Shown piece by piece: positions 3,001 through 9,000 of a stretch of 52,839 nucleotides of DNA. Within the stretch, counting starts at the first letter, position 1. Each line of letters begins with the position of its first letter. Position numbers: made by a program. This stretch comes from a virus. Taxonomy: Duplodnaviria > Heunggongvirae > Uroviricota > Caudoviricetes. Where the stretch lies: IMG/VR virus record IMGVR_UViG_2880372215_000003; one strand, written 5' to 3'.

Positions 3001-6000
3001 GCGCATCTCTGCCTGAATTTCGGGCCATTTGGCACCAGGCTTACATTTATGCTTAACCCACCCGATGGCATGCAGCTTAAGCTCCGGATACATAGCGTTA
3101 ACTTCTGGCATTTTCATCAACGCTTCAACGATATGGCCGTCGAATGTTGCCATGTCTTCCTGCAACAATTCCTGTGCGCTAATCACCATATCAACAGTGA
3201 TGTTTTCACATGTGTCGAACTTAACCATGACAGCGTTCTGTACTTCAGGGGCCAGGTTGTCAAAAGTGACGTTCATCGGATCGGATTCAGTCTCGACCGG
3301 GACAAAGGAAGCAGACGCCTCATCCCAGCGGTTTTCCTGCATATATTCAGCATCCCAGGAATCGAGGGCAGGGCGGGGTATACCGGGTTTATCCTCGCAA
3401 ACAAGAAATTTATAAGCGCAGTCCTGAGCAGCCGGATAATGTTCCAGGAATTGCCAGTGAAATTTTGCGCGGGCGCGACGTTCATCACCGGCTTCAATGG
3501 CAGTGGCTACAGCGACGGCACCTTCTTCCTTTATTGCCTGTTCGTCCGGAATGGCGGCGCAAATAAAGACTTTACTCATTTTGTTTTACCTCATTACAGA
3601 TTTAAGGGTGAACAAATCCCTGCCATTGCTGGCATATAAGAATGAAATCGGATGTTTATTACGGAACTGTTTTAAAGACCTGCCGGGATTTCGTTATTAT
3701 CCTGGTGAATAACTTTATCGACCGGGTAACAGTTACCGGGAATTTTCTGTTCGGTTGCTGCAGTCACACACTCCTGCATTGTCCTGTGAACACTGACTGC
3801 AATATCAACTGGCTCTCCGGAAACAAGAAAAACTGTCAGAACAAGTGCAAATGCTGTATTCATTGCCAGCATCCTTTTTGTATCGGACGTAAACGGGCCA
3901 GCATTGAAAGAATGCATATTTTATTTAATAGCTCCCGTTCGTGTTTTCTCTTGTTAATGGCATCTTCAGTAAATACAGGGTTACTGATAGTGACACCAAT
4001 TTCAAAACAACCTTCAGACGTATTAACGTTTGGTAATAACGTTTCCATTATCGCGTCCTCAACAATGAATTTTGTGATGCGGTGCCTGGTGCCTCCAGGT
4101 GACGTTAACCAGTTAACAATTAACGCCGGATACAGAGAATCCCCCCATAACACTGTTTTTGGTTTTAACTGTTCCGCGTGCGCTCAGCCGCATTCACCGC
4201 ATCACAAAATTCACTTTAAAAAGGGCGGCAGAGCAGTCACGGAGTAAAACTGATACCGCCAAACGTCACCAGAAAATTGATAACAGAGGGCGTTGCAGCG
4301 GGGTTGTCACTTAAGCGTATGGTCAACCTGACAACCCGGTGTCCTCAACGGGGGAAGGAATAACCCCTCCATACTTACCGCCGCGCCATTTCGCGGATTG
4401 CCACAACCGGAAGCGCACGGTCGACGAAAATTTAACGACAGGCTATCTATGAACCAGCTACCTCGCCGTGCGCTTTCGCGTTATGGTCTGACTTTTCAGG
4501 GAAATATCCTTTCAGTAAACTGTCAGTGCCGTATGCTCACCCGTGTCCGGCGCACGCACTCCACCTCACCCGTGGAGAACTCCTTAATTACCAACCTTAG
4601 CTTCGTTGGTTAGCTATTAACGCGGGTATGTAATCATTCTGGCAATGCTTAATGCCGCTGCTTTTTCCAGATTGGTGATATCCTGCTCCAGAGCGGACAG
4701 ATTTTCAGCCTGCTTAGCCCTGGCTTCATTGGCCCATTTCAGATCCTGCGCTGCATTAATTTTCTGGTGCATCCACTCATAAAGTTCATCATCGGTATAG
4801 TCTGGCGCGATGATGACGGGTTCTCGTTTCTGCATGTCGGCTCCTTGTGGTTAGCGTTGCCTGCTTTTAACCACGTCAGGCGAGGTGGTATCCTCTGAGG
4901 GGTCTGTTACTCGAGAGGAAATTGGTTATGAATACAATCAAGTTTTCTTGCCCAGAATGTGGTGGCGAAGTCTTTGACACATCCTTTAAGCCGCAGGGCT
5001 CTGACAGTTTCGCGGGAGCCATCTGCAAAAATTGTGGTCACCTTGTAACTGAAGATGAGTCCTCGCAGTTCGATGACGAAATCGTTGACAATATCTTCGG
5101 TGCACTCACCAGAGACTTTCTGAAGTAAAGGCGCATACCGCTTAGTTACCGCTCTGATAACTCTTACCTGTCCTGCAATGGCGCTGATGTCAATATAAAG
5201 CGCCATTGCTGCTTCTTTGCCGATCCCGGGATGCCTTCCATTCTGATGTTTGACTTCGCCCACTGAGAAACCCTCTGTTTCCCCTTAACGCCGGGGTAGC
5301 GGAACAAAAAACTGCTGCATAGTTATTAAAGTTGAACCCTGCCGTCATGTTCATACGCCTCGGGCTGGCTACTTAACCCCTGACCACTGCCGGGTAACTC
5401 GAAGTATTTCCCTGCGTTCTGTGGGGCGGGGTGGGTTGGTATTTTTAGTTTAATAAACATTAAACTTAAGTCAAGTAAAAACTAAACCGCGGGACATAAC
5501 AAACACAACGCTTTTGATAAAGTCGTTGCGGTTGTTATGTTTCTATTGGTAGTGAAAGTTAGGGAAACTGGCGTCTTGCGTGGATCACGTTTACTACTTC
5601 AACGCTTGATGTTGTTACGCGGTATAGAATTATATAGTTAGGGTGGGCTACAATCTCACGCAAGCCAGGTACTCTGTCGCTTGGTGGGTATAAATACGGA
5701 TGTTCGGATAACGGCAGCACACAACCCCTTAATCGCTGCCATAAGCGTTCAGCCGCATCTATGTCGAAACGAGCAATATAACTAGTTATATCATCTAGGT
5801 CGGTATCTGCGCTTTCAAGCCATAACACGGGTAACATTTTACTGCTTGCTCCGTTCCTTGCGCATCTTAGCAAAGCGTTCTGCCATTCTGCGCTCAACTT
5901 CGTCATGGGGAATTGCTGGGCGCGGATCTGCAAGGCTCGTTGCTACTTTCGCACGCAGCCATTCGTTGTAACTGTTTTCTTGTTCAATGGTTTCAAATTC

Positions 6001-9000
6001 AGAAACCATTGGTGAAAGGGCTCTATTCATGTTTCCTCCGGTTTTATAACTCAGGCGCGGCGGCATTTTTGCGCCGCAATCCATCTCGCTATGAGATCTT
6101 CCATTGATTCTTTTTTCTGCTTTAACTCGCTGATTATCTGGCGTTGCTCATCCTCAGGGAAGGCTGAAAAAATCTGCAATAATTCCAGTTGATTAGACGT
6201 TAACCCTGCATGTGGTGGAGAACCCCCCGGTTGTTCTGCGTATTCCGCATCCAGATACCCTTCCGGCATCCCGTATGTTTGCTCTATTCTTCTGGCAGCC
6301 TTTTCTCCAAACGAGGCTCTCCCACTCATTAGTTGAGATAGGTAGCTCTTCTCTTTGGGTGGCAGAGTTTTATCTTTAAACCACTCCTTGAGACGTAAAC
6401 GGCGAATTTCTTTTTTTTGCATGTGGTAATTATCTTTAGTAATCACTAAACAAGCAAATACTTGACTTAATGGTTTATTAAACACTAAACTCGCAAAAAA
6501 ACACTAAACCGAGGAAGGTATGACATTAAAAGAGTTTATTAAATCATTAAGGGTTGGTGATGCTAAGAAATTCGCGGCCAGACTTGGTGTATCGCCATCT
6601 TACTTATCGCAAATGGCGTCTGGACGAACAGCTATATCTCCAACCCGCGCCCTTATGATCGAATCTGCGACGGAAGGCCAAGTAAGTAGGGCGGAGCTAC
6701 GACCCCATGATTGGGAGCTTATTTGGCCTGAGTATGCGAGCGGCATTCGTTTGGGGCAAACACATGTAGTTCATGCTGAAGGTGATTGTAGTGCATGCTT
6801 ATCTGATGGAGTTGATTCATGAAAATCAAGCATGAACACATCCGCATGGCGATGAATGTCTGGGCGCATCCGGACGGCGAAAAAGTACCGGCTGCGAAAA
6901 TTACCAAAGCGTATTTCGAGCTGGGAATGACGTTCCCGGAACTGTATGACGACAGCCATCCGGAAGCCCTGGCCCGTAATACCCAGAAAATTTTCCGTTG
7001 GCTGGATAAAGACACCCCTGATGCTGTTGAAAAAATGCAGGCTCTGTTACCGGCGATCGAAAAGGCGATGCCGCCTTTGCTGGTGGCCCGTATGCGCAGC
7101 CACAGTTCTGAATATTACCGTGAGATCGTCGAACGGAGGGATCGGCTGGTGAAGGATGTCGATGATTTTGTTGCGTCAGCGGTTGTTTTGTATGACCAGA
7201 TGAATCGCGGCGGCCCGGCAGGGAATGCTGTGGTGATGCACTAAAAGCACGGTGTTCGGGGGTTTTATGAGCAGCAAGCTTCATGGTCTTGTCTGGGAAG
7301 GGTGCGCCTTCACCGGCATGATCTTATCCAGGGTGGCGGTTATGGCCCGTCTTGCAGACTACAGCAATGACGAGGGCGTGTCATGGCCTGCCATTGAAAC
7401 TATCCGGCGTCAGATCGGTGCAAGAAGTGAATCCACAGTGAAATCGGCTATTGCAGAACTGGCGAAAGAGGGCTGGCTGACGAAGGAAGAGCGTAAGGTC
7501 GGTGGGCGTAATGTAAGCAATATCTATCGGCTTAATGTGGAAAAACTCGAAGCAGCTGCTGCGGCGGCGCGTGAGTCATATAAACCGAAAAGAAAAATTA
7601 GCCCGGCAAAAAATGACCCGTTAACAGTTGACCCGTCAAATATTGCCCCCTCAACGGTTGACCCGTCAAATTTTGATGGATCAACTGTTGATAACAAACT
7701 GCCGATTAGGGGGGCGATGATTGACCCCGATCCGTCAGTATTAAAACCTGATCCGTCAGATAAAAGATCTTCTTGTCCGGACGCTTCGCAACCGGACCCG
7801 CAGACGGCTGAACAGAATTTTTTAACCCGACACCCTGACGCGGTTGTGTTCAGTGCGAAAAAACGCCAGTGGGGAAGTCAGGAAGATTTGGTGTGCGCAC
7901 AGTGGATCTGGGGACGAATCGTGAGTCTTTACGAGCAGGCGGCCAGCGATGATGGCGAGATCACGAGACCGAAAGAACCCAACTGGACTGCATGGGCCAA
8001 TGACGTGCGGACAATGCGGATGCTGGATGGCAGAACTCACAGACAAATTTGTGAAATGTTTGGGCGTCTCCAGCGGGATTCGTTCTGGGTAAAAAACATC
8101 ATGAGTCCGGCAAAACTCCGGGAAAAATGGGATGAACTGGTTATCCGCCTGGGGCGTTCGCCCGCGCAGCGTTGCGTGAATCACATTTCTGAACCGGACA
8201 CTGAAATACCGCCGGGATTCAGGGGGTGACGTGTCATGAAAAACATTGCGGCAGTTGGGGTTCTTGAACGTATTCGCAGACTTGCACCACAGGGGGCGGT
8301 TCCACCGTACCGGACGGTGGAGGAGTGGCGGGAATGGCAACTTGCTGAAGGACGAAAACGCAGCGAGGAGATTAACCGCCTGAATCATCAGGTGCGGGTT
8401 GAAAAAATCCTGAACCGTGCGGGCATCCAGCCGCTTCACAGGAAGTGCTCATTCGGGAACTACCGGGTGCAGAACGACGGTCAGCGCCATGCTCTGAGCC
8501 AGGCGAAATCCATTGCCGATGAATTGATGACCGGATGTACAAACTTCGTGTTCAGCGGTAAACCTGGTACCGGTAAAAATCACCTGGCAGCAGCGATTGG
8601 CAATCGGCTGATGGCGAAGGGGAGAAGCGTGATTATCGTCACCGTGTCCGATGTCATGAGCGTGTTGCATGACGGCTACGACAACGGCCAGTCCGGGGAA
8701 AAATTTTTACAGGAGCTTTGTGGAGTTGACCTTCTGGTCCTTGATGAAATTGGCATGCAGCGGGATACGCGCAACGAGCAGGTCACGCTGAACCAGATAG
8801 TCGACCGCAGAACGGCTTCGATGCGTAGTGTCGGAATGCTGACGAACCTGAATCACGCAGCGATGAGCACACTCCTCGGAGATCGGGTGATGGACCGTAT
8901 GACCATGAATGGTGGTCGTTGGGTGAATTTTAACTGGGAGAGCTGGCGGTCAAACGTTGGACGTCAGGGTATGTGAGAATTTTTGACGAGGTAAATTTTC

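Follow-up and report, generated by a model that had tools for sequence, protein, structure and literature searches.

The paaR2-paaA2-parE2 toxin-antitoxin operon in the immunity region of an Escherichia coli O157:H7 cryptic lambdoid prophage

The paaR2, paaA2 and parE2 genes and their products

The Caudoviricetes record IMGVR_UViG_2880372215_000003 (the whole stretch of 52,839 nucleotides (nt) that was analysed, here called the window) carries three tightly coupled genes on the minus strand between positions 5559 and 6422. The original prediction, made from the bare sequence, described their products of 123, 63 and 92 amino acids (aa) as a helix-turn-helix (HTH) repressor, an antitoxin and a ParE-family toxin that fit the PaaR-PaaA-ParE systems of E. 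coli O157 prophages, and suggested that the regulator also serves as repressor of the prophage. Coordinates, strand and sizes were confirmed, and the three genes are almost certainly the operon paaR2-paaA2-parE2, which belongs to the immunity region of CP-933P/Sp12, a cryptic lambdoid prophage of E. coli O157:H7:

6051-6422, minus strand: paaR2 (ATG to TGA, 123 aa), HTH regulator and CI-analogous immunity repressor
5839-6030, minus strand: paaA2 (ATG to TAA, 63 aa), antitoxin without a DNA-binding domain
5559-5837, minus strand: parE2 (ATG to TAA, 92 aa), ParE-family toxin

All three open reading frames (ORFs) are co-directional and follow each other in the order regulator, antitoxin, toxin. 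The gap between paaR2 and paaA2 amounts to 20 nt (GTTATAAAACCGGAGGAAAC) and holds a GGAGG ribosome-binding site 5 nt before the ATG of paaA2, while only 1 nt separates the stop codon of paaA2 from the start codon of parE2. Longer versions starting further upstream (144, 81 and 124 aa) appear in a mechanical ORF list; they were rejected since the shorter starts match N-terminal sequencing and the chains deposited in the PDB, and the 81-aa and 124-aa versions would in addition run extensively into the gene upstream. N-terminal sequencing of PaaR2 gave MQKKE, i.e. the same start as that of the 123-aa ORF, and the paaR2 mRNA is leaderless, its transcript beginning at the A of the ATG at position 6422 (PMC8630535).

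The identity of the products is carried by structures and profiles. ParE2 is identical in 92 of 92 residues to the 'Plasmid stabilization protein ParE' of PDB entries 5cw7_B/5cze (E = 7e-60), so that its ParE fold is that of a crystal structure of the identical sequence; weaker matches in the PDB are other ParE toxins (3kxe, 6x0a, 5ceg). Residues 2-63 of PaaA2 are identical to the chains in 3zbe, 5cw7 and 5cze (E = 5.5e-37). For PaaR2, residues 1-66 are identical to 7nkv/8c3k, the N-terminal domain of a 'Phage repressor protein CI' (E = 5e-41), and divergence begins only where the tag of the PDB construct begins. The profile search for ParE/RelE and PaaA2 that had been suggested along with the original prediction was positive in both cases: the parE2 product reaches 60.9 bits with Pfam PF05016 ParE_toxin (gathering cut-off 23, E = 1.9e-16) and the paaA2 product 70.7 bits with PF21217 PaaA2 (gathering cut-off 27, E = 1e-19). 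The latter match covers residues 16-45 on a model of 33 positions and is the only domain found in PaaA2; PaaR2 has no Pfam family at E <= 0.01. Because the products are 100% identical to PDB chains and two of them lie above the Pfam thresholds, the three genes are beyond chance.

The DNA leads to the same assignment. Many E. coli O157:H7 chromosomes match the region 5300-7300 with 100% identity; among 5426 complete E. coli genomes, 590 carry 80% or more of it. The prophage that carries paaR2-paaA2-parE2 is CP-933P in strain EDL933 and Sp12 in strain Sakai (PMC8630535, PMC9986795), and we use the name paaR2-paaA2-parE2 of CP-933P since these papers place the system in CP-933P of EDL933. Proteins, gene order, spacing, the 97-bp region upstream of paaR2, the hexamers of the PR and PL promoters and the YdaT site are all the same in the window, as are the flanking ydaS-ydaT genes, the replication genes, dicB and DicF; there is no difference within the module, and O157 strains depart from each other only in the layout of the distal right half. 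With its gene order and spacing, the ParE fold, a PaaA-type antitoxin and a separate leading HTH regulator, the module has the features of the PaaR-PaaA-ParE family. The fit proposed by the original prediction therefore turns into identity of proteins and DNA, and the module is the reference (type) member of the family, not merely a similar system. No evidence weighs against this identification, and the caveats discussed below touch the mechanism only. The finding is at the same time already known and nothing in it is new: work on the system goes back to 2010 (Hallez et al. 2010; Sterckx et al. 2014, 2016; Jurenas et al. 2021), a full study of its regulation appeared in 2021, and solved structures exist of PaaA2 alone and in complex with ParE2, of the PaaR2 N-terminal domain and of YdaT.

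Operators, promoters and the ydaS-ydaT genes

Upstream of paaR2, and just downstream of parE2, lie the elements expected for a lambdoid immunity region:

6423-6519, no strand assigned: divergent operator/promoter region (OR, PRM933P, PR933P), 97 bp between paaR2 and ydaS
6462-6491, plus strand: PR933P, TTGACT-18-TAAACT by consensus scan, drives ydaS-ydaT
6429-6457, minus strand: putative hexamers of PRM933P, TTGCTT-17-GATAAT, read from the sequence, with +1 on the paaR2 ATG at 6422
5447-5487, minus strand: PL933P with OL-type repeats just downstream of parE2, TTGACT-16-TAAACT at 5474-5447 by consensus scan
5494-5540, minus strand: hairpin with 22-nt arms and a 3-nt loop, between the parE2 stop codon and PL933P
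6520-6822, plus strand: ydaS (100 aa), Cro-analogous HTH protein, Pfam YdaS_toxin E = 3.3e-12 and HTH_3 E = 6e-7
6819-7244, plus strand: ydaT (141 aa), CII-analogous protein, PDB 8bt1 E = 7e-93 over residues 2-141, Pfam YdaT_toxin
6812-6829, no strand assigned: OM, high-affinity operator of YdaT, TTGATTCATGAAAATCAA, at the ydaS stop and ydaT start

The region between paaR2 and ydaS measures exactly 97 bp, the same as the published length (PMC8630535). PR933P and PL933P share identical -35 and -10 hexamers, as was also published (PMC8630535). The placement of PRM933P is probable: the candidate matches the consensus weakly (8 of 12 positions) and falls under the threshold of the promoter scan, which fits the weak basal activity described for this promoter, just as the position of its +1 fits the leaderless start (PMC8630535). 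A family of 14-nt repeats (D1) occurs in both operator regions, with copies at 6438-6451, 6477-6490 and 6496-6509 in OR and at 5452-5465 and 5474-5487 in OL, and a 24-nt match links 5448-5471 to 6460-6483 in inverted orientation. The heptamer GTTTAGT is found four times in the window, three times in the OR region and a fourth time at 5481-5487 just downstream of parE2. This number corresponds to the 3.74 copies expected by chance, enrichment was thus discarded as an argument, and only the clustering of the heptamer in the two operator regions is informative.

For the hairpin at 5494-5540, RNA folding yields -24 kcal/mol (z = -4.7), a stability reached by none of 200 shuffled sequences. A function as intrinsic terminator was considered and dropped, since no clean U-tract follows the hairpin and the terminator scan made no call on it. 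Judging from its position and predicted fold, it may form the 3' end, or an insulator, of the paaR2-paaA2-parE2 transcript.

ydaS and ydaT overlap by 4 nt. The recognition motif published for YdaT, TTGATTN6AATCAA, has a single match in the window, which is exact and lies at 6812-6829, and the footprint of YdaT has been mapped to the end of ydaS, next to PRE933P (PMC9986795). As in lambdoid immunity switches, the gene of a CII-type activator follows a cro-like gene with the binding motif at their junction, the repressor gene and the cro-like gene diverge from a short operator region, and a second operator set is found at the leftward early promoter. The Pfam names of the two products invite a reading of ydaS-ydaT as a second toxin-antitoxin pair, which we rejected because published work shows that they are Cro-like and CII-like regulators (PMC8630535, PMC9986795); Pfam still titles these regulator families YdaS_toxin and YdaT_toxin. 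RefSeq, in turn, lists PaaR2 as 'hypothetical protein', PaaA2 as 'RelB family antitoxin' and YdaT as 'toxin YdaT family protein'. Automatic annotation trails the literature for this locus.

The present analysis shows how the genes are laid out, that their products are identical to characterised proteins and that the published cis-elements are there; what is said on DNA binding, regulation, bistability, toxicity and addiction comes from published work on the same sequence. PaaR2 binds approximately 78 bp of the 97-bp region and represses PR933P and PL933P, whereas PRM933P is stimulated at low and repressed at high amounts of PaaR2 (PMC8630535). The sites of YdaS overlap those of PaaR2, with a preference for PRM, and YdaS also represses PR933P; together, PaaR2 and YdaS form a bistable switch in which mutation of either protein removes one of the two heritable expression states (PMC8630535). 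YdaT activates PRE933P (PMC8630535, PMC9986795). Jurenas et al. assigned the roles in 2021, with PaaR2 as the CI analogue, YdaS as the Cro analogue and YdaT as the CII analogue (PMC8630535). The supposition that the regulator doubles as prophage repressor has thus been demonstrated for this very locus, and the one correction that we have to make to the original prediction concerns novelty: it gave as an inference of its own what was already published. The module and its dual role can be recovered from raw sequence alone, as was done there, which is useful as a positive control and has no discovery value.

The arrangement resembles the immunity region of phage lambda. In both, a leftward repressor gene with a leaderless transcript precedes two passenger genes, a cro-like and a cII-like gene run divergently from it, operators are found at OR and approximately 1 kb away at OL, a CII-type site marks the cro/cII junction and the circuit is a bistable switch. 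The components differ. PaaR2 shows no sequence similarity to lambda CI and lacks a RecA-cleavable S24 domain; at 123 aa and with no Pfam match at E <= 0.01, PaaR2 does not fall into the S24 peptidase (CI/LexA) family. The operator region consists of four 18-bp palindromes plus direct repeats (PMC8630535) instead of the three operators in lambda, YdaT is a POU-domain tetramer unrelated to lambda CII (PMC9986795), and the passenger genes are a toxin-antitoxin pair here and rexAB in lambda.

Mode of action and alternative readings

In the cell, ParE2 localises to the nucleoid and sets off the SOS response (PMC8630535, PMC8251345). Its toxicity, SOS induction and post-segregational killing were reported by Hallez et al. 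2010, as cited in PMC8630535 and PMC4803016; a non-toxic product or one lacking a ParE fold, either of which would have spoken against the original prediction, is hence not what the locus encodes. ParE2 reportedly does not bind GyrA (PMC8251345). The proteases ClpAP and ClpXP degrade PaaA2, which folds around ParE2 in the way known from the C-terminal part of ParD (PMC8630535, PMC8251345). Canonical two-gene parDE type II systems (RK2, Caulobacter, Vibrio) share with the module the ParE-fold toxin and an antitoxin whose C-terminal segment wraps the toxin in the same conformation (PMC8251345). PaaA2 does not have a ribbon-helix-helix domain, which sets the module apart from canonical ParD-ParE, and it has been described as a truncated ParD without DNA-binding domain (PMC8251345). 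The paralogous paaR1-paaA1-parE1 system of CP-933M in the same strain, compared here via the literature, is likewise built of three genes, whose products belong to the same families (PMC8630535, PMC4803016). It is nevertheless distinct, as PaaA1 fails to neutralise ParE2 and vice versa (PMC4803016), and the proteins of the window belong to the '2' set.

Escherichia phage Evi (LR597642.1), a coliphage that came from faecal samples of infants, carries the same immunity region with 98.3% identity over 1391 bp. There the module occupies positions 6120-6983. ParE2 of Evi is identical to that of the window, PaaA2 differs by K55R, PaaR2 differs at residues 66-67, and a single base differs in the 97-bp operator region; parE2 of Evi is intact and unannotated in LR597642.1. 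As a hint only, this suggests that the PaaR2 switch with its toxin-antitoxin passenger may also be at work in a particle-forming phage.

Together with the published experiments on this locus, the analysis gives the following mode of action. PaaR2, made from a leaderless mRNA, takes the place of lambda cI, binds the operators in the 97-bp region and at PL933P and shuts off PR and PL; its own promoter is stimulated at low and repressed at high concentration. Competition by YdaS for the operators of PaaR2 generates the bistable switch, and YdaT, bound to TTGATTN6AATCAA at the ydaS/ydaT junction, turns on PRE933P as an alternative leftward promoter for paaR2-paaA2-parE2. PaaA2, which is short, largely disordered and protease-labile, wraps and neutralises ParE2, a nucleoid-associated toxin of the ParE fold that would otherwise trigger the SOS response. 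Since PaaA2 is devoid of a DNA-binding domain, transcription is controlled by PaaR2, the product of the first gene of the operon. Once the locus is lost, PaaA2 would be degraded by ClpAP and ClpXP and ParE2 would kill the cell; by virtue of this killing the module would be addictive and keep the immunity region stable. The locus does stabilise an unstable mini-F plasmid via post-segregational killing, and a guarding of the immunity region against rearrangement by the toxin-antitoxin pair has been proposed by the authors of that work (PMC8630535).

Several observations qualify this mode of action. ParE2 activity has not been detected at steady state in either transcriptional state (PMC8630535), and the addiction or stabilisation role therefore rests on plasmid-loss assays. 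PaaR2 has no RecA-dependent autocleavage domain and does not respond to mitomycin C (PMC8630535), and it is therefore a functional analogue of lambda CI and not a homologue. Finally, the integrase gene (window positions 67-749, minus strand) is frameshifted and truncated in the identical O157 records and encodes only a fragment with the Arm DNA-binding domain, a state consistent with a cryptic, non-excisable prophage; as the prophage is defective, no lysis-lysogeny decision is executed.

The defective integrase could also indicate that the module in the window is itself a decayed, non-functional copy. We regard this as practically negligible, as none of the three ORFs is disrupted and their products are identical to experimentally active proteins, promoters and operators are intact with an intergenic region that departs from that of Evi at 1 of 97 positions, and the region is 100% conserved across many O157:H7 genomes. 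Very improbable, too, is the idea that PaaR2 is no more than a DNA-binding part separated from a 'split antitoxin', serving the autoregulation of the toxin-antitoxin operon, and that the true immunity repressor is located elsewhere or has been lost. The authors of the 2021 study themselves raised the split-antitoxin idea (PMC8630535); it would account for a PaaA2 without DNA-binding domain and for its co-transcription with PaaR2, and it agrees with the absence of an S24 peptidase domain and of a Pfam repressor family from PaaR2. Yet paaR2 is situated at the exact cI/dicA position, divergent from a cro-like gene across the 97-bp operator region, a second set of operators and promoter with the same hexamers lies approximately 1 kb away at PL, and no other repressor-like gene is present from dicB to the replication genes. 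Moreover, PR933P and PL933P, which are repressed by PaaR2, are not toxin-antitoxin promoters, and a stop mutation in paaR2 abolishes one state of the switch (PMC8630535).

A further alternative concerns the biological role and leaves the identity of the module unchanged. paaA2-parE2 could mainly protect the lysogen by abortive infection or superinfection exclusion instead of serving addiction or stabilisation. The pair is co-transcribed with the repressor at the position of rexA-rexB in lambda, an equivalence noted in PMC9986795, it is transcribed in both states of the switch without detectable toxin activity, as a poised system would be (PMC8630535), and Evi carries a near-identical module whose ParE2 is identical. 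The locus has, on the other hand, been shown to stabilise a plasmid by post-segregational killing (PMC8630535), whereas phage exclusion is a proposal only, and we consider exclusion as the main role unlikely. In live temperate phages, for instance Evi, paaA2-parE2 might guard against other phages (abortive infection or exclusion) or against recombination; this, too, is unlikely, and if true such a guard would act via a target of ParE2 other than GyrA.

The host prophage

Positions 1-25000 of the window share 100% identity with O157:H7 chromosomes, among them those of strains 86-24 and ATCC 43888. In the identical records the lambdoid prophage adjoins ynfA and is situated within a truncated rspA gene. 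To the right of approximately 24.9 kb (up to 52839), the window is only 83-99% identical to 86-24 in the tail genes, the nleA/nleH1-2/nleF segment of 86-24 is missing from it, and its sequence passes over to the IS66/nleG/espM1 region. A reading of the entire window as the canonical 86-24 prophage was therefore rejected. The two halves of the window lie approximately 420 kb apart on opposite strands in strain AR-0428, while they are contiguous and collinear with the window in strain NCCP 15739. The arrangement of the right half looks like a large inversion or a recombination between lambdoid prophages, and events of this kind have been reported for Sp12 (PMC8630535).

Beyond ydaT follow the replication genes, with a replication initiator at 7252-8229 and a DnaC/IstB-like ATPase at 8236-8976. 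On the other side, the ORFs first met downstream of PL933P could be assigned no function; they encode 44 aa (5326-5460) and 118 aa (4907-5263) on the minus strand, and a 68-aa zinc-ribbon protein of the ECs_2282 family is encoded on the opposite strand there (4922-5128, plus strand). Further downstream of PL933P are ydfC (4617-4835, minus strand), the antisense small RNA DicF (4223-4274, minus strand; Rfam RF00039, 76.7 bits) and, adjoining DicF, the gene of the cell-division inhibitor dicB (3860-4048, minus strand). Since DicF stands beside dicB downstream of PL933P, the PL operon resembles the dicBF region of Qin.

The same prophage holds a second, unrelated toxin-antitoxin locus, a type I hokD/sok system at 11120-11294 (plus strand), recognised by an Rfam match to sok (116.9 bits) and by the hokD annotation of the identical O157 sequence. 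Downstream of the Q antiterminator gene, three tRNA genes (Ile, Arg and Arg according to an identical O157 record) are followed by a match to the small RNA STnc100 (93.4 bits), with tRNA and small RNA coordinates of 14210-14456 and 15235-15406, both on the plus strand.

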